From IMG/VR virus record IMGVR_UViG_2651869695_000003: 64,000 nt of DNA, one strand, 5' to 3'. Made by a program: the position numbers and the translations under genes. Source of the stretch: a virus. Taxonomy: Duplodnaviria; Heunggongvirae; Uroviricota; Caudoviricetes. The notes under the pieces are model-generated. The model saw only the letters and a list, made by a program, of their open reading frames with translations. It was not told where the DNA came from and did not search any database. Below, one piece after another: positions 9,686 through 53,095 of this stretch. The stretch's first letter is position 1. Each line of letters begins with the position of its first letter.

Positions 9686-10891
9686 ATGGCGGTAGATATT
9701 AAAGATGTCGAACAGGTCGCGCAGGAGCTGCAGCAGAAGTTTGACGACTTCAAAGCAAAGAACGACAAGCGCGTGGATGCGATTGAGCAGGAAAAAGGCA
9801 AGCTTGCCGGACAGGTGGAAACCCTGAACGGGAAACTCAGCGAGCTGGAAAATCTCAAAAGCGACCTTGAAAAAGAGCTGCTTGAGCTGAAACGTCCGGC
9901 AGGTGGATCGCAAAATAAACTGGCCACCGAGCATAAAGAGGCGTTTGTGGGCTTCCTGCGTAAAGGCCGTGAAGACGGTCTGCGCGATCTGGAGCGTAAG
10001 GCATTGCAGGTGGGCACCGATGAAGACGGTGGCTACGCCGTGCCGGAAGAACTGGATCGCAACATTCTTAACCTGCTGAAAGATGAAGTGGTGATGCGTC
10101 AGGAAGCCACGGTGATCACCGTTGGCGGTTCCGACTACAAAAAACTGGTGAATCTGGGCGGTACGGCTTCCGGATGGGTGGGGGAAACGGATACGCGATC
10201 CCAGACTGCCACCTCCAGACTGGAGCTGATTGAACCTCTCATGGGGGAAATCTACGGCAACCCGCAGGCTACCCAGAAAATGCTGGACGATGCCTTCTTC
10301 AACGTGGAGGCCTGGATCAACAGCGAGCTGGCGACCGAATTTGCCGAACAGGAAGAAATTGCCTTTACCACCGGCGATGGTACCAAGAAGCCAAAAGGGT
10401 TCCTGGCGTATGAATCTACTGATGAAACCGATAAGATCCGGGCGTTCGGCAAACTTCAGCATATTGTATCCGGCGAAGCGACCGCGGTGACCGCAGACGC
10501 CATTATCAAACTGATTTACACGCTGCGTAAGGCACACCGCACTGGCGCGAAGTTCATGATGAACAACAACAGCCTGTTTGCCATCCGTCTGCTGAAAGAC
10601 ACCGAGGGTAACTATCTGTGGCGTCCGGGGCTGGAACTGGGGCAGCCGTCCTCTCTGGCGGGTTACGGTATCGCTGAAAACGAACAGATGCCGGATATCG
10701 CCGCTGATGCGAAAGCCATTGCATTTGGTAACTTCAAACGGGGTTACACCATCGTTGACCGTATCGGCACCCGCATTCTGCGTGACCCGTACACCAATAA
10801 ACCGTTTGTCGGTTTTTATACCACCAAGCGCACCGGCGGGATGCTGGTCGATTCGCAGGCCATCAAACTGCTGAAGATTGCAGCGGCGTAA
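9686..10891 (+). CDS. Major capsid protein (HK97 fold family)
   Basis: 401 aa with N-terminal coiled-coil delta-like region followed by capsid domain; follows protease. Confidence 0.85.
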   Translation: MAVDIKDVEQVAQELQQKFDDFKAKNDKRVDAIEQEKGKLAGQVETLNGKLSELENLKSDLEKELLELKRPAGGSQNKLATEHKEAFVGFLRKGREDGLRDLERKALQVGTDEDGGYAVPEELDRNILNLLKDEVVMRQEATVITVGGSDYKKLVNLGGTASGWVGETDTRSQTATSRLELIEPLMGEIYGNPQATQKMLDDAFFNVEAWINSELATEFAEQEEIAFTTGDGTKKPKGFLAYESTDETDKIRAFGKLQHIVSGEATAVTADAIIKLIYTLRKAHRTGAKFMMNNNSLFAIRLLKDTEGNYLWRPGLELGQPSSLAGYGIAENEQMPDIAADAKAIAFGNFKRGYTIVDRIGTRILRDPYTNKPFVGFYTTKRTGGMLVDSQAIKLLKIAAA

Positions 10892-22234: not shown

Positions 22235-23218
22235 ATGCATCGTATAGACACGAAAACCGCGCAGAAGGATAAGTTCGGCGCGGGTAAGAACGGTTTTACC
22301 CGTGGTAACCCCCAGACCGGCACACCTGCCACCGATCTTGATGATGACTACTTTGATATGTTGCAGGAAGAACTCTGCAGCGTGGTGGAGGCATCCGGTG
22401 CCAGCCTGGAGAAGGGGCGGCATGACCAGCTGCTTACCGCGCTTCGTGCGCTGCTGTTAAGCCGCAAGAATCCGTTTAGCGATATCAAATCGGATGGCAC
22501 GGTGAAAACGGCTCTCGAAAACCTTGGTTTGGGAGAAGCCAGATTCTCTGGTCGTTTGTTAAACACGAATATTTTTAAAAGCTCTGGAAAATATATCCCA
22601 ACACTAGGGACAAAAAAGATAAGGGTCATTGCCTCTGGTGGCGGTGGCGGCGGCGGTGGGGTTCCTGAAACAACAGAAAATCAGCAGGCAACAGCCGGAG
22701 CTGGATTGAGCGGTGCATTTATTGAAGCATTTTTCGAGGTTGATAATGATTTCGAAGTCAACGTTATTATCGGTGCTGCAGGTAAAGGGGGGGGAGCCGG
22801 AAGAAATTCAGGTAGTGAAGGTGGCACAACTTATTTCGGTTCCCTGATAACTGCACCGGGTGGTACAGGCGGTGGCGCGGGGGGAGCATCTGCAAACACA
22901 TCATATATTCAGGGTATTTCATGGGGTGCCAGTCCGACATCGTCCGGTACTGTACTAAGAGCATTTCGCTGTAGTGCAAAAACACCAGGAGCAATGGTTA
23001 TCTCTGTTAAAGCTGTTGCAGGTGGTACCGGGGGGGATACACCACTAGGTTCAGGCGGTATAGGTGGTGCAAGTTCTTCATCATTCAGCGGACGTGGTGG
23101 TGGTAAAGCTGAGGGCTTTGGTGCTGGCGGAGGCGGAGCCTGCGCACCTGCCGGAAGTGAGGCTCAATCGGGAGGTGACGGTGCCCCGGGAATAGTTATT
23201 GTTGAGGAGTATGCCTGA
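22235..23218 (+). CDS. Tail fibre protein, variant A (constant N-terminus 102 aa + Gly-rich variable C-terminus)
   Basis: First 102 aa identical to the fibre at 23869..24531; C-terminus rich in GGxGG repeats. Confidence 0.8.
22512..22537. other. Candidate Din-family invertase crossover site (left)
   Basis: CTCTCGAAAACC-TT-GGTTTGGGAGAA fits the hix/gix/cix-type pattern (TTnTCnnAAACC-NN-GGTTTnnGAnAA, from memory); lies at the constant/variable junction. Confidence 0.55.
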
Positions 23219-23481
23219 TGAGTAATTTTGCTCTGATTGAACATGGCGTGGTGAAAAATATTATTATCTGGGATGGAGAGGGTGATTTATTCTCTAACTG
23301 CGAAATTATAAATATTGATCATATAGATGCAGGCGTCGGTTGGTTCTATTCTGACGGAGAGTTTATAGCACCACCGGAACCGGAAATGACTGAATATGAT
23401 GTTGGTAATATCGACGCGGTGATGGAATCAGATACCAGCACCGCGCCGGACGTCATCTGGCCTGAACTGCCGGAGGCGTAG
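23218..23481 (+). CDS. Tail fibre assembly protein for variant A
   Basis: 87 aa; start overlaps fibre A stop (TGATG); C-terminus ...[12 protein letters not shown] resembles Tfa C-termini. Confidence 0.55.
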   Translation: MSNFALIEHGVVKNIIIWDGEGDLFSNCEIINIDHIDAGVGWFYSDGEFIAPPEPEMTEYDVGNIDAVMESDTSTAPDVIWPELPEA

Positions 23482-23872
23482 GCCATTCAATATCTGGCGC
23501 ACCGGAAGTATCGACCAGTTCCAGTGCGTCCAGGTAATCCAGCCACAAATTATATTGCGCCAGTTCCTCACCTTTCAGACGACCAATAGCGGCTTTACCA
23601 GGCCATTGCTTACTGTTCATGTATTCGTTGGCCTGTTCAATAAGTATACTTTTCATTCCCTCCGCTTCAGCTATTTCCTGTTCCTGTGTCTTCGCTGGAT
23701 ATTCAGTAAGTACAGGGTAGTTATCCGGATTATTGATAATAATTTTCCCCGTACTCTGACCATTCATAAGTTCATAATAAAGAGCATCTTCAATATCGAA
23801 AGCATCATCGGGAATATCGCTGTTATTTTCAGAGAAAAATCCCTGAACAGATGGGGACCATTTCATTTTCAT
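23453..23872 (-). CDS. Tail fibre assembly protein for variant B
   Basis: 139 aa; coupled to fibre B; C-terminus ...[15 protein letters not shown]; 3' end overlaps convergent tfa A by 29 nt. Confidence 0.7.
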
Positions 23873-24531
23873 AATTTCCCAATTCCTAAAATGTGGACAT
23901 CATCAGCCTTACGGGCATTCCAGGTGACAATTACATCGGTAGAGTGACGATTAACTGAGATTGCATATGCTTCGTTAGTCGAGCCAGAAACTTTTGTAGC
24001 AAACACAGCAAACAGGACACCAAATGACTGGGGCCATTTATAGCCTGACAGCTGATAATTACCATTATTCAGTGTTACAGCTTTGGCTGCTGCACTTGAT
24101 GGAATCGTCAGCCACTGAAGTATCAACCCTCCTGGCAAAAGTTGTTTTCCGTAATAATCCCTCACCCCACTAAATGAAGCCATGTCCGGTATCTGATTTT
24201 CCCCTGTTCCCACATTTCGTTTTGCCGCTTCTCCCAAACCAAGGTTTTCGAGAGCCGTTTTCACCGTGCCATCCGATTTGATATCGCTAAACGGATTCTT
24301 GCGGCTTAACAGCAGCGCACGAAGCGCGGTAAGCAGCTGGTCATGCCGCCCCTTCTCCAGGCTGGCACCGGATGCCTCCACCACGCTGCAGAGTTCTTCC
24401 TGCAACATATCAAAGTAGTCATCATCAAGATCGGTGGCAGGTGTGCCGGTCTGGGGGTTACCACGGGTAAAACCGTTCTTACCCGCGCCGAACTTATCCT
24501 TCTGCGCGGTTTTCGTGTCTATACGATGCAT
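23869..24531 (-). CDS. Tail fibre protein, variant B (same constant N-terminus, different C-terminal receptor-binding region)
   Basis: N-terminal 102 aa identical to variant A, then unrelated C-terminus. Confidence 0.8.
24229..24254. other. Candidate Din-family invertase crossover site (right, inverted)
   Basis: TTCTCCCAAACC-AA-GGTTTTCGAGAG, reverse complement of left site. Confidence 0.55.
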
Positions 24532-50142: not shown

Positions 50143-50481
50143 CTATTTCCCTGAATTTACGACGAAACTGTTCGAGCGGACTGAAGCATTCATGCTCATA
50201 ACCTTCGCGGAGGTAGATAACCCGTTGTGTTTCCGGCTCCCAACGAATGACTCTGACGGGTACTCCGTAGTGATCTTTGAACCAGCGGTTAACTTGTCGC
50301 AAAGGACTGTCTCCTTCTGCCGGTTGAAATCACCCACAGCCCACTCTGCAAAGCTGTGGGTTACAATTTCCCTGTCACCTGGTACATTCACTGCATAGCA
50401 ATATTCCACCTTCGCTTTTCCACCCGGAACAGGAAGCGCAATCAGTTGCGAGCGACGGTAGTGTGTTGTTAAACTGTTCAT
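50143..50481 (-). CDS. Hypothetical early protein (112 aa)
   Basis: Start overlaps upstream stop; otherwise unsupported. Confidence 0.3.
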
Positions 50482-51047
50482 GCGTTAGTTTCTCCACAAC
50501 CAGAAGCAATCGACGCCACGACGCCCGGAGCTGCACACTCGCGGGCGTCATTACTTTCTGAAATGCAAAAAATTTTGTAGACCAGTGCTGCATGCTCCTG
50601 CAGCTTCGAAATTGAGAGATACAGCTCGTCGTTAATTGCTGTCTTCTCATGCGGTTCCACTACACCGTCTTCGATTGCTGAACGAATCTGTTTTGAATAA
50701 CTGCCGATCTGTTCAATGACTTCCAGCAGACGCTGGTTAATATCGGCGTTGTCCACATCCTCGACGTCAGGAAGAGACACAAAGACGCCATTTGCAGACT
50801 GCGCCACAGCATCAGCAATGAAGTGAGTGCCACCAGCACGCTGTAAAACCATTGCCCATCCCAGCGGGAAAATCTGATCGCCATCTGCACGAAGGCGGTT
50901 GAATAAAGCGTTTTCTGTTACATCGAGCCAGTCAGCCGCTTCAGCGTAACCACCCGGCAACGCCGCGATAGTTTTTCTGACAGCTTTCACGTACCACTCA
51001 GGCTGTTTTTCTATTTTCCAGTGATGCTTACCCACAATTAGCCTCAT
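50478..51047 (-). CDS. CII-like phage regulatory protein (putative)
   Basis: 189 aa directly downstream of cro-like gene; weak resemblance to enterobacterial phage CII-type regulators. Confidence 0.4.
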
Positions 51048-51078
51048 CGTTCTGTGGTTAAAAATTGAAAGTGTTCTG

Positions 51079-51279
51079 CTAATCTTTCGGATAGATATCC
51101 GGTCTTAAGTCAGATTTCGTAATTGCACCTGACGTGCATTGCTCAAGTTTTTTAGCCAGCACAAAACTGGCTTTTTTATAGCCATTGAAAACCAGCCGTA
51201 AGTAGCCAGGTGTTGAGCCAACTTTTCCGGCCAACTCGCCCTGCTGTTCTTTGGTTAAAGAGTCCCAATACGCTTTCAT
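51079..51279 (-). CDS. Cro/YdaS-like HTH regulator
   Basis: 66-aa HTH protein divergent from cI-like repressor; start at first ATG of the longer ORF 51079..51582. Confidence 0.6.
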   Translation of the reverse strand: MKAYWDSLTKEQQGELAGKVGSTPGYLRLVFNGYKKASFVLAKKLEQCTSGAITKSDLRPDIYPKD

Positions 51280-51282
51280 ACA

Positions 51283-51354
51283 ATATGTACCTCCGATGTA
51301 CATATTACATGATTGAAATGAACCTTCAAGATACTTGTACCTTAACGGTACAAG
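51283..51354. promoter_or_regulatory. Operator region (OR-like): two TGTAC-N7-GTACA inverted repeats between cro and cI
   Basis: ATATGTAC-N7-GTACATAT at 51283..51305 and CTTGTACC-N5-GGTACAAG at 51334..51354. Confidence 0.45.
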
Positions 51355-51369
51355 GGTTTTAATTTCGTT

Positions 51370-52044
51370 ATGAAAACAATCCATGACATCCGGCGGTCTA
51401 ACGCCAGAAAACTGAGAGATGGTGTTGGCGGGAATTCTTCCTTTGCCACTATGATTGATCGCGAGCCAACCCAGACCAGCAGGTTTATGGGAGATGGTGC
51501 TACTAAAAATATCGGTGACAGCATGGCACGACACATCGAAAAATGTTTCGACCTGCCTGTCGGATGGCTCGATCAAGAACACCAGACAACGAACATCACA
51601 AAAAAACCTGATGTTTCAATCACTAATAAACAAATCACATTAGTCCCTGTCATATCATGGGTACAGGCCGGAGCATGGAAAGAAGTTGGATATTCTGAGG
51701 TTGATTTGAGCACAGCAGAAACGTATCCCTGCCCTGTACCCTGTGGGGAAATGACTTATATCTTGCGGGTGATAGGTGATTCAATGATTGATGAGTACCG
51801 CCCGGGAGACATGATTTTTGTCGATCCTGAAGTACCTGCCTGCCACGGTGACGACGTTATTGCATTGATGCACGATACAGGTGAAACCACCTTCAAAAGG
51901 TTGATAGAAGATGGGACACAGCGTTATCTCAAAGCGTTAAACCCAAACTGGCCTGAGCCTTACATTAAGATCAACGGTAATTGCTCTATAATTGGTACAG
52001 TGATTTTCTCAGGAAAACCAAGAAGATACAAAATCAAAGCCTAA
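51370..52044 (+). CDS. CI-like repressor (HTH + S24 LexA-type peptidase domain)
   Basis: C-terminal ...VIGDSMIDEYRPGDMIFVDP... autocleavage domain motif; divergent from cro; no SD (possibly leaderless like lambda PRM transcript). Confidence 0.8.
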   Translation: MKTIHDIRRSNARKLRDGVGGNSSFATMIDREPTQTSRFMGDGATKNIGDSMARHIEKCFDLPVGWLDQEHQTTNITKKPDVSITNKQITLVPVISWVQAGAWKEVGYSEVDLSTAETYPCPVPCGEMTYILRVIGDSMIDEYRPGDMIFVDPEVPACHGDDVIALMHDTGETTFKRLIEDGTQRYLKALNPNWPEPYIKINGNCSIIGTVIFSGKPRRYKIKA

Positions 52045-52057
52045 TCAATGTTTATGA

Positions 52058-52079
52058 ACCTGCTTCGGCAGGTTTTTTT
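52058..52079 (+). terminator. Rho-independent terminator after repressor gene
   Basis: ACCTGC-TTCG-GCAGGT followed by TTTTTTT. Confidence 0.55.
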
Positions 52080-52083
52080 ATAC

Positions 52084-52115
52084 TTGACAATGTACCTTTG
52101 AGATACATAATGTAC
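52084..52115 (+). promoter_or_regulatory. PL-like promoter with overlapping operator half-sites
   Basis: TTGACA (52084..52089), 16-bp spacer, CATAAT (52106..52111); TGTAC/ATACA half-sites overlap. Confidence 0.45.
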
Positions 52116-52216
52116 CCAAGCGAAACAACGAACAGGCAGGACGCCCACGAAGTAGCCGCCTGGGGCATATGAAGTCCAGGATGATTCGTTGAGTCATGTT
52201 GTGCCACTAGGCACTC

Positions 52217-52513
52217 ATGTTAAAGCAGGTGTATGAAATGAAAGTCCAGATTTTAAACAATAACTGTGAAGTCGTTTGGTCATACGACATAGCCGCCCCT
52301 GTAGATCAGAGCGGCGATAGCTGGACCAATGGGAAACATCAGATTATGGCTGGAGTTGTGTTCTCTTTACGCCGTGCTTTGGAACAGGCTGAAGTATTTC
52401 CATCAGACCCTGAATGGAAATGGCCTTTTTCTATTTGTCCAAATTCGGAGAGCACATTTCAGAAAATTGGTCAGAAAGTCGCACTCGAAGAGCATCAGCC
52501 AACTGTTTCCTGA
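52217..52513 (+). CDS. Hypothetical early-left protein (98 aa)
   Basis: First ORF downstream of PL-like promoter; overlaps a competing minus-strand ORF. Confidence 0.3.
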   Translation: MLKQVYEMKVQILNNNCEVVWSYDIAAPVDQSGDSWTNGKHQIMAGVVFSLRRALEQAEVFPSDPEWKWPFSICPNSESTFQKIGQKVALEEHQPTVS

Positions 52514-52676
52514 TTTTTTCAGGTAACTCGTCGGCATCGCAGAAACAACAACGCTCGATCATGTTGAAAGCCGATTCGTAGAACTGTTTTTGCTGAGTGT
52601 CGCTGAGACAGGAAAAGAGCGACGTTACGATGATTTTATTAATTGCATTATCAAGTTCTTTTTCATCAAAAGTCAT
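52431..52676 (-). CDS. Hypothetical protein (81 aa), alternative to overlapping plus-strand ORF
   Basis: Protein-like composition; only one of the two overlapping ORFs is likely real. Confidence 0.25.
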   Translation of the reverse strand: MTFDEKELDNAINKIIVTSLFSCLSDTQQKQFYESAFNMIERCCFCDADELPEKIRKQLADALRVRLSDQFSEMCSPNLDK

Positions 52677-53095
52677 TTGATTTTCCTTTTATGTATACGG
52701 GCTTAAAAGGATACCACCGAGCCTGAAGTGGTGAAAAGACAGGCACATAACAGCTAAGTATTTTCAACCAGAGAGAATCCTTAGCGTTGTGGTGAATGCG
52801 GCTCAGCGCACGCGGGTTAAGGTTGAGGCTGACAGTCGACCTTCTGTGGATACCCACCCGTCTGGTGTGCAACCTTCGCCAGGCACCGGGAGGCACCCGG
52901 CACCACAACTTTATGCTGTGTGTAGTCCTGGCGGTACCAGTTTGTACCCTTGCTTCCGGCTGGTACCGTCCTTTTTACAAAACAGAGAAGAGCATCACCG
53001 GACGACGGGCTCATAACCCAATCCATCCGGGCGGCTGCCACCGCAGGTGTTCTTCTCTGTTTTGTGGAGAAACTAATCGGCCTTGCAGGGTCGAT

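Follow-up and report, generated by a model that had tools for sequence, protein, structure and literature searches.

The locus considered here raises the question of what a set of inverted repeats between two divergent phage genes is for, and which protein reads them. It lies in a stretch of 64,000 nucleotides of viral DNA (Duplodnaviria; Heunggongvirae; Uroviricota; Caudoviricetes) from IMG/VR virus record IMGVR_UViG_2651869695_000003, referred to below, at its full length, as the window. Around positions 51,283 to 52,115 a cI-like repressor gene and a cro-like gene point away from each other, and repeats with TGTAC/GTACA half-sites occur between the two genes and again past the end of cI. 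These repeats are very probably the operators of a lambda-type switch in the e14/SfV immunity module. The sites themselves, their confinement to two control regions, their conservation, their co-variation with the recognition helix of the repressor and the protein domains were established computationally. The two genes are as follows.

51370–52044, plus strand: cI-like repressor gene, homologue of ymfK, 224 aa; full-length match to Pfam Peptidase_S24 (E 1.5e-26).

51079–51279, minus strand: cro-like gene, homologue of ymfT, 66 aa, YdaS/HTH_3-like; from the open reading frame (ORF) list.

The two genes are separated by 90 bp and are annotated cro and cI in phage SfV. A motif search of the 64-kb window returned only two exact matches to TGTAC-N7-GTACA, TGTACCTCCGATGTACA at 51286–51302 (center 51294) and TGTACCTTAACGGTACA at 51336–51352 (center 51344), both within the 90-bp gap; the coordinates given for these palindromes in a preliminary description of the sequence were thereby reproduced. 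Dinucleotide-preserving shuffles contained 0.04 exact matches on average, and none of 100 reached two. Allowing one mismatch added a single site, TGTACCTTTGAGATACA at 52091–52107, and motif, promoter and terminator scans together recovered the arrangement that had been described for it, a TGTAC-N7-ATACA repeat overlapping TTGACA-16-CATAAT just past the cI terminator. By itself this third site is not significant, with about one one-mismatch match expected per window; under an independently trained weight matrix it ranked third in the window, and 0.03 matches are expected at its score.

The half-site was compiled from 26 examples in the window, Hafnia phage yong2, Pseudomonas phages CF60a and LESphi3, and a Vibrio phage. 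It reads W-T-G-T-A-C-C, with the G and the second T present in all 26, the other T and the A in 24 each, and the C's in 22 and 21. A half-site of 7 bp (WTGTACC) gives a predicted operator of 19 bp, WTGTACC-N5-GGTACAW. The weight matrix was trained solely on the Hafnia, Pseudomonas and Vibrio phage sites and then run over the whole window, where ranks 1–4 fell on OR3, OR1, OL1 and OL2, and a weak middle site, OR2, came sixth (OR and OL denote the right and left operators).

51285–51303, unstranded: OR1, ATGTACCTCCGATGTACAT; exact motif, the first palindrome of the preliminary description; weight-matrix score 20.2, rank 2.

51318–51336, unstranded: OR2, the weak middle operator, ATGAACCTTCAAGATACTT; score 10.7, rank 6 of 64 kb.

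51335–51353, unstranded: OR3, TTGTACCTTAACGGTACAA; exact motif, the second palindrome; score 22.5, the maximum possible, rank 1.

52090–52108, unstranded: OL1, ATGTACCTTTGAGATACAT; one-mismatch motif, the third site; score 19.1, rank 3.

52110–52128, unstranded: OL2, ATGTACCCAAGCGAAACAA; score 14.1, rank 4.

A score at the level of OL2 is expected 0.4 times per 64 kb at any position, and OL2 sits exactly adjacent to OL1, 20 bp away. The spacings are 33 and 17 bp among the three OR sites, one of them weak, and 20 bp between the two OL sites. The three sites originally listed all stand, but that inventory was incomplete, as the half-site extends to 7 bp and the weaker sites at 52110–52128 and 51318–51336 had been missed. 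In the same way operators do occur at both OR and the leftward promoter PL, but OR is tripartite, PL has two sites, and the region was already annotated as e14/SfV immunity. An additional half-site arrangement, ATACA-N3-TGTAC (51278–51290 and 52103–52115), was rejected: the copy at PL is merely the OL1/OL2 junction, and at OR the partner half at 51266–51270 is mismatched and the ATACA overlaps the cro start codon.

A motif search in related prophages, as proposed in the preliminary description, found the motif at constant geometry in 17 of 17 loci of different taxa. These loci came from a scan of one genome per species with a 5-sequence alignment, which returned 20 loci; the 17 from different taxa that were analyzed belong to Atlantibacter, Pantoea, Leclercia, Enterobacter, Pseudocitrobacter, Klebsiella, Trabulsiella, Kluyvera, Limnobaculum, Entomohabitans, Proteus, Rosenbergiella (two), Pseudomonas, metagenome-assembled genomes (MAGs) and E. 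coli. In every one of them the three best matches in ~6.2 kb were a site at −85/−86 from the repressor ATG (OR1), a site at −35/−36 (OR3) and a site of the OL1 type 43–139 nt past the repressor stop codon. The repressors share the recognition helix IDRExTQxSR, while the operator spacers differ in nearly every species and are unrelated at OR3. The two weaker sites recur less regularly. A site at −51 to −53 was among the top five in 14 of the 17 loci, mostly as ATGAACC-N5-GGTACTT, and also in Hafnia yong2, CF60a and LESphi3, this conservation of OR2 being confounded by the −35 hexamer of the rightward promoter PR in its center; a site 20 bp beyond OL1 was in the top five of 10 loci.

More distant phages gave the same picture. 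Hafnia yong2, with 74.5% identity in the N-terminal domain of the repressor, keeps all sites with the OR3 spacer fully replaced. In Pseudomonas phages CF60a, LESphi3 and LPPA33 (55–59% identity over 71 aa) there is a weak middle site as well as two exact TGTAC-N7-GTACA sites, separated by 51 bp, of which the first covers the cro Shine-Dalgarno sequence. When a matrix built from enterobacterial sites only was run on LESphi3 (20 kb), the six best matches all fell in OR or in the region ahead of the leftward early operon. A Vibrio phage carries TGTAC-GCGTTTG-GTACA at an unchanged distance from the repressor start. The specificity WTGTACC-N5-GGTACAW, with its geometry of −85, −52 and −35 from the cI start, appears common to Enterobacterales, Pseudomonas and Vibrio.

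Conversely, the motif changes where the recognition helix does. The helix of the window's repressor is (R)EPTQTSR. In Klebsiella phage Chronis and in H-19B, whose N-terminal domains are ~41% identical to it, helix 3 reads AALSQ and SQLTQ versus TQTSR, and the TGTACC motif is replaced at OR and after cI by TTTAGC-N5-GCTAAA or TTTATC-type palindromes. The Ayreon homology block, by local alignment, corresponds to window positions 50468–52127; its end coincides with the final base of the OL2 core, which would be expected were OL2 the boundary of the immunity module. The earlier proposal that the repeats define repressor specificity and predict heteroimmunity agrees with this: different palindromes go with a different helix 3, and homology with heteroimmune mosaics stops at the last operator (52127).

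The same comparisons bear on whether the Cro-like YmfT or the cII-like YmfL is the sole or main reader of the sites, the cI-like repressor recognizing something else. Cro homologues accompany the motif in Pseudomonas phages too (the Cro of the window and that of LESphi3 are 32% identical, E 5e-13), and in CP-933P of E. coli O157:H7 the region footprinted by YdaS is the same as that footprinted by the repressor (PMC8630535). Such an assignment is nevertheless improbable, since neither the 90-bp gap nor PL offers cI any alternative repeated motif, the motif goes with the cI recognition helix in the 17 loci and changes with helix 3, and PL adjoins cI, as in lambda. The cII-type YdaT recognizes TTGATT-N6-AATCAA (PMC9986795), a sequence that is absent here.

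Nor do the repeats look like boxes for host LexA (SOS) or targets of another host regulator. The LexA box is a 16-bp palindrome, CTGT-N8-ACAG, and the motif resembles it in having TGT...ACA; the spacing here is TGT-N11-ACA, however, and the flanks differ. The element is SOS-inducible, YmfK being termed the e14 "SOS-sensitive repressor" (PMC8249747), but the repressor's own S24 self-cleavage domain explains SOS induction. With the motif accompanying the phage repressor in hosts as different as Pseudomonas, Vibrio and Proteus, a host regulator as the reader is very hard to credit.

Inverted repeats may also act as hairpins, in a terminator or a cruciform. OR3 is one example, being an extended palindrome (CTTGTACC-TTAAC-GGTACAAG, 51334–51354) that is followed by GGTTTTAATT, and the terminator scan lists 51334–51354 with the T-rich tail on the plus strand. 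What is conserved across genera, though, is the arm sequence TGTACC itself rather than pairing maintained through compensatory changes. OR1, OL1 and OL2 lack a T run, and no plus-strand transcript is expected through OR3. A genuine hairpin in the PL leader, described below, behaves in the opposite way, its sequence changing while its pairing is kept. A hairpin function for the repeats is accordingly extremely improbable, and a set of operators read by the cI-like repressor, as originally proposed for OR and PL, is the reading that all of the computational tests support.

How these operators would act can be judged from their position on the promoters, of which PR and PRM (the repressor's own promoter) are predicted.

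51302–51329, minus strand: PR for cro, predicted; −35 TTGAAG (51329–51324), 16-nt spacer, −10 TAATAT (51307–51302), read from the sequence.

51335–51370, plus strand: PRM, predicted; −35 TTGTAC (51335–51340), 17-nt spacer, −10 TTTAAT (51358–51363).

52056–52082, plus strand: terminator after cI, GAACCTGC-TTCG-GCAGGTT followed by a T run; from the terminator scan.

52084–52111, plus strand: PL, TTGACA (52084), 16-nt spacer, CATAAT (52111); 11/12 consensus positions.

The overlap of operators and promoters at OR was judged on predicted hexamers. OR1 takes in the cro Shine-Dalgarno sequence GGAGGT (51289–51294, minus strand), the PR start, predicted near 51295, and the final 2 nt of the PR −10. 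The LESphi3 equivalent of PR, TTGACG-17-CATGAT, occupies the same place relative to the sites. The center of OR2, at 51327, falls on the PR −35, a position of −43 relative to the PRM start as predicted. OR3 covers the predicted PRM −35 and spacer with its center at −26, and from this position autorepression is predicted. Only 6 nt separate the PRM −10 from the A of the cI ATG (51370), and no Shine-Dalgarno sequence precedes the ATG. Both a TnnAAT/TnTAAT hexamer 6 nt ahead of the ATG and the 17-nt distance from operator to ATG are shared by E. coli, Hafnia, Pseudomonas, Vibrio and most other species. The conservation of these two distances from E. coli to Pseudomonas and Vibrio suggests that the cI mRNA is leaderless and starts at the ATG at 51370.

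At the other end of cI, the terminator is annotated in the SfV and Ayreon records and is invariant in related loci. PL follows directly past it and is an annotated promoter in the Ayreon record; the PL junction TTGACAATGTACC recurs at the leftward early promoter of Pseudomonas phage LESphi3. The PL spacer is filled by OL1, which extends over the first 3 nt of the −10; OL2 takes in the final 2 nt of this hexamer along with the predicted start, a geometry equal to that of OR1 at PR. Within the PR spacer no site analogous to OL1 was found.

The region is, by sequence, the e14/SfV immunity module, comprising ymfK (cI), ymfT (cro) and a third gene, the cII-like ymfL.

50478–51047, minus strand: cII-like gene, homologue of ymfL, at the left of the module; Pfam Phage_CP76 (E 1.3e-13), the same DNA being named ymfL in RefSeq.

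Positions 50400–52700 of the window were 96.2% identical to phage SfV over 97% of their length, 93–99% identical over most of the length to SfIV, PhiR29/49, cdtI, Stx2c-converting phages and Ayreon, and 99.9% identical to many E. coli genomes, in which the genes are ymfK (LexA-family), ymfT (YdaS-family helix-turn-helix, HTH) and ymfL. A match to the module was present in ~40% of complete E. coli genomes (2159/5426). In 80 IMG/VR loci the repressor was 100% identical, and identity over the first 106 aa was 99–100% in SfIV, SfV, cdtI, Stx2c phages and Ayreon; the paper on SfIV reports that its cI and Cro are identical to those of SfV. Apart from their centers the operators are equal in SfV, Ayreon and e14 of K-12, and e14 of K-12 MG1655 also has the same PL. 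SfV and K-12 e14 hold the same module, with single-base differences in operator centers (CTCCGAT here versus CTCCGGT in K-12); beyond the PL leader, their mosaic partner differs from that of the window.

The "putative operator region" of the SfV GenBank record maps to window positions 51285–51353 and is bounded by the two palindromes. The OR part has been public since the SfV genome was deposited, and the finding is essentially already known. The database records examined carry no annotation for the PL operators, the 7-bp half-site or the weak middle site. This analysis adds the 7-bp length of the half-site, a second operator at PL, a weak site in the middle of OR, the conserved geometry of PRM with its predicted leaderless mRNA, and the occurrence of the same specificity in Pseudomonas and Vibrio phages.

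Variation among close relatives was followed in the 80 IMG/VR loci, all of which encode an identical repressor and so record micro-variation only, together with SfV and Ayreon. Non-coding variation was concentrated in the operator centers. Among 24–29 distinct close relatives, 13 of 25 positions in the central 5 bp were variable versus 10 of 68 in the half-sites (Fisher p = 7e-4), and 11 of 87 other non-coding positions; the variable centers include 51292–51296, 52097–52101 and 52117–52122. At OR1 the changes were limited to the center (CTCCGAT/GGT/AGT/TGT/AAT) plus G/A at 51298. The half-sites of OL1 were fixed and its center hypervariable (CTTTGAG/CCATGAG/CTATGAG/CCTTGAG), and OL2 likewise combined fixed half-sites with a variable spacer (CCAAGCG/CCAAGAG/CAAAGAG). 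The centers may vary in this way simply for want of constraint, or because selection tunes the affinity of the operators.

The protein that would bind these sites has the features of a lambdoid repressor. Lambda cI carries an Ala-Gly cleavage site and a Ser/Lys dyad, and the counterparts in the window's translation are Ala100-Gly101 (VQAGAW), Ser138 (GDSM) and Lys176 (TFKRL), within the S24 autopeptidase domain. The C-terminal domain matches those of lambda cI, UmuD and LexA in the PDB, TFKRL being aligned to TFKKL. A profile of eight N-terminal domains matches the phage repressor N-terminal domains 5d50_A (E 2.4e-10), 7nkv (E 2.6e-5) and 8c3k (E 3e-5); a homologue search with the N-terminal domain gave 14 proteins, for the most part incomplete and not enough to align. 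The protein is consistent with the lambdoid type, in which an HTH N-terminal domain is joined to a self-cleaving S24 C-terminal domain. On the opposite strand, the cro-like protein has weak Pfam matches to YdaS_toxin and HTH_3, both under the curated cut-offs. As a separate observation, the family of phage repressor N-terminal domains represented by cI residues 1–75 seems poorly covered by Pfam.

From these data we infer the actual binding, the promoter start points, the order of occupancy and the role of Cro as follows. Dimers of the cI-like repressor would recognize the 19-bp sites through the N-terminal HTH. A dimer bound at OR1 would hide the cro ribosome-binding site together with the PR start and the end of the PR −10, silencing the early-right operon cro-ymfL; another, at the weak middle site (51318–51336), would lie on the PR −35. 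Occupancy of OR3, the best palindrome, on the PRM −35 and spacer, would give negative autoregulation of cI. With OL1 and OL2 both occupied, the PL spacer would be filled and the start covered, blocking the early-left operon. Upon DNA damage, RecA-stimulated self-cleavage at Ala100-Gly101 by the Ser138/Lys176 S24 domain would bring about derepression, and the YdaS-family Cro would then probably bind the same sites, preferring OR3, and turn cI off. By analogy with lambda and CP-933P, cI and Cro probably both bind the sites.

Several points weigh against this account. The strongest site lies on the repressor's own promoter, so that maintenance of cI in the lysogen is not explained, and the 17-bp spacing of OR2 and OR3 makes these sites overlap by 2 bp. 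PR and PRM each match 8 of 12 consensus positions, and the promoter scan lists neither. Because Cro homologues co-occur with the motif, comparison alone cannot assign the sites to cI or to Cro, and since the enterobacterial loci share descent, their conservation is partly common ancestry. Pfam HTH models miss cI residues 1–75 (51370–51594) even at E up to 10. An AlphaFold model of the single repressor sequence was uninformative (pLDDT, the predicted local confidence score, 31). Finally, binding, footprint and transcription-start data for this repressor were not found in the literature searched, outside which the SfV and e14 genome papers lay.

Compared with lambda, the arrangement is familiar. 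Both have divergent cI and cro, a repressor made of HTH and S24 domains with Ala-Gly and Ser/Lys, and partly symmetric operators of 17–19 bp over back-to-back PR and PRM; both have another set of operators at PL, a promoter downstream of cI with the same orientation. The cI mRNA is probably leaderless, as in lambda, and the site at about −43 of PRM has the position of lambda OR2. The differences concern sequence and layout. The lambda operator is TATCACCGCCAGTGGTA, unrelated to the WTGTACC type, and the spacings of 33 and 17 bp at OR and 20 bp at OL contrast with 23–24 bp in lambda. OR1 lies here over the transcription start and ribosome-binding site, whereas in lambda it lies between the −35 and −10. 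In the window, unlike lambda, the strongest site is on PRM, two OL sites are seen, Cro is of the YdaS family, and the cII analogue is of the CP76/YdaT type. The operators of 434 and P22 offer a further likeness, with outer half-sites conserved and a center that is not contacted and free to vary; in the window the centers are the most variable non-coding DNA of the module. The 434 operator, ACAA-N6-TTGT, differs from those of the window in sequence and length.

The closest experimental analogue is the PaaR2/YdaS/YdaT switch of CP-933P (PMC8630535). It, too, has a YdaS-family Cro and back-to-back PR and PRM, with an intergenic region of 97 bp versus 90 bp here (PMC8630535). In CP-933P the repressor mRNA was found to be leaderless by 5' RACE (rapid amplification of cDNA ends), whereas we infer its counterpart in the window; the repressor and YdaS footprint over PR/PRM, YdaS prefers PRM, and PL is co-regulated (PMC8630535). 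The CP-933P operators are 18-bp palindromes with the consensus GTTTAGTAA, versus the half-site WTGTACC here, and a toxin-antitoxin pair lies downstream of the repressor, where the window has a terminator and PL (PMC8630535). The element described here is a standard lambdoid operator set and adds nothing conceptual to the lambda paradigm.

Two of the related phages deserve a separate remark. In LESphi3, three operator-like sites 33–34 bp apart (TTGAACCAAAAAGGTACAT, TAGTAGCGAAAAGGTACAT and TTGTACCTTTCTGGCTCTT) occur at locus positions 10721–10806, ahead of the leftward early operon, and a brnT/brnA toxin-antitoxin pair and a DUF1654 gene stand between this set and cI; its arrangement makes it likely to be a tripartite OL displaced by morons. 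The record of Hafnia yong2 starts cI at locus position 1618 and thereby omits the entire HTH domain. The homologous ATG lies at 1501 (gene 1501–2175), 17 nt past the operator, and a tRNA-Gly(CCC) gene occupies the PL leader region of this phage (2367–2440).

Past PL, a further element adjoins the operator set and lies outside it.

52133–52191, plus strand: structured element in the PL leader transcript; from RNAalifold and pair counts.

An outer helix, CGAA/UUCG, encloses the hairpin CCUGGG-GCAUAUGAAG-UCCAGG. Compensatory changes affect three pairs of the hairpin, with UA/GC/CG/AU at pair 29-46 and GC/UA/AU at pair 31-44 among them, and 91.8% of cells in the helix are paired versus 19–48% when the partners are slid. 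The loop GCRUAUGAAK and the 3' tail AUGAUUCG are conserved. A covariance model placed the element at the same position in seven other genera, for a total of at least eight enterobacterial genera; its carriers are E. coli, Pseudocitrobacter, Kluyvera, Atlantibacter, Enterobacter, Leclercia, Klebsiella and a MAG. In many relatives homology stops directly past it, after ...GAUGAUUCGUU. No second copy was found in the window, and an Rfam scan of 48–56 kb returned no family at OR, PL or the PL leader. A mini-ORF in the leader, AUG-AUU-CGU-stop, is not kept in other genera and was dropped. The element may act in cis in antitermination, processing or translation. If so, it would be a new cis-acting control in phages reported to lack an N homologue.

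In many IMG/VR mosaics a short hairpin rich in GC comes after the element, ~150–185 nt past the cI stop, together with a perfect rrn-type boxA, (T/A)(C/A)GCTCTTTAACAA, which suggests a nut-like antitermination site in these boxA-bearing relatives. The variant found in the window and in SfV had no match to an rrn-type boxA with up to one mismatch. A wider interpretation would join the leader RNA, as a new cis-acting element, to a single specificity of fixed geometry running from Enterobacterales to Pseudomonas and Vibrio, with operator centers tuned for affinity; taken as a whole, this remains a tentative proposal and rather doubtful.

Two observations concern the rest of the window. Positions 1 to ~22550 are the exact reverse complement of ~24216–46765, with position x pairing with 46766-x and an identity of 100% in every 1-kb bin, so that the fold-back covers the first 46.8 kb. 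Its unique center of ~1.6 kb (~22550–24216) contains two tail-fiber genes with a shared N-terminus and different C-termini, and an ORF resembling tail-fiber assembly genes. The inverted duplication is probably a fold-back assembly artifact at an invertible tail-fiber segment, in which case only ~40 kb of the window is unique phage sequence. At 52756–52978 (plus strand), in the early-left region between orf32 and the terminator annotated in SfV after orf33, a match to the full model length of the gammaproteobacterial small RNA STnc100 stays below the Rfam threshold (41.2 bits versus a gathering score of 47, E 2e-6).

The motif sets the immunity specificity of one of the commonest prophage modules of E. 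coli and Shigella, carried by e14 of K-12, by the serotype-converting phages SfV and SfIV, and by the cdtI and Stx2c toxin phages. Knowledge of WTGTACC-N5-GGTACAW makes homoimmunity among these phages predictable. The operators show where SOS-induced early transcription starts, including that of the e14 cell-division inhibitor operon, and can guide the construction of reporters or derepressed mutants.

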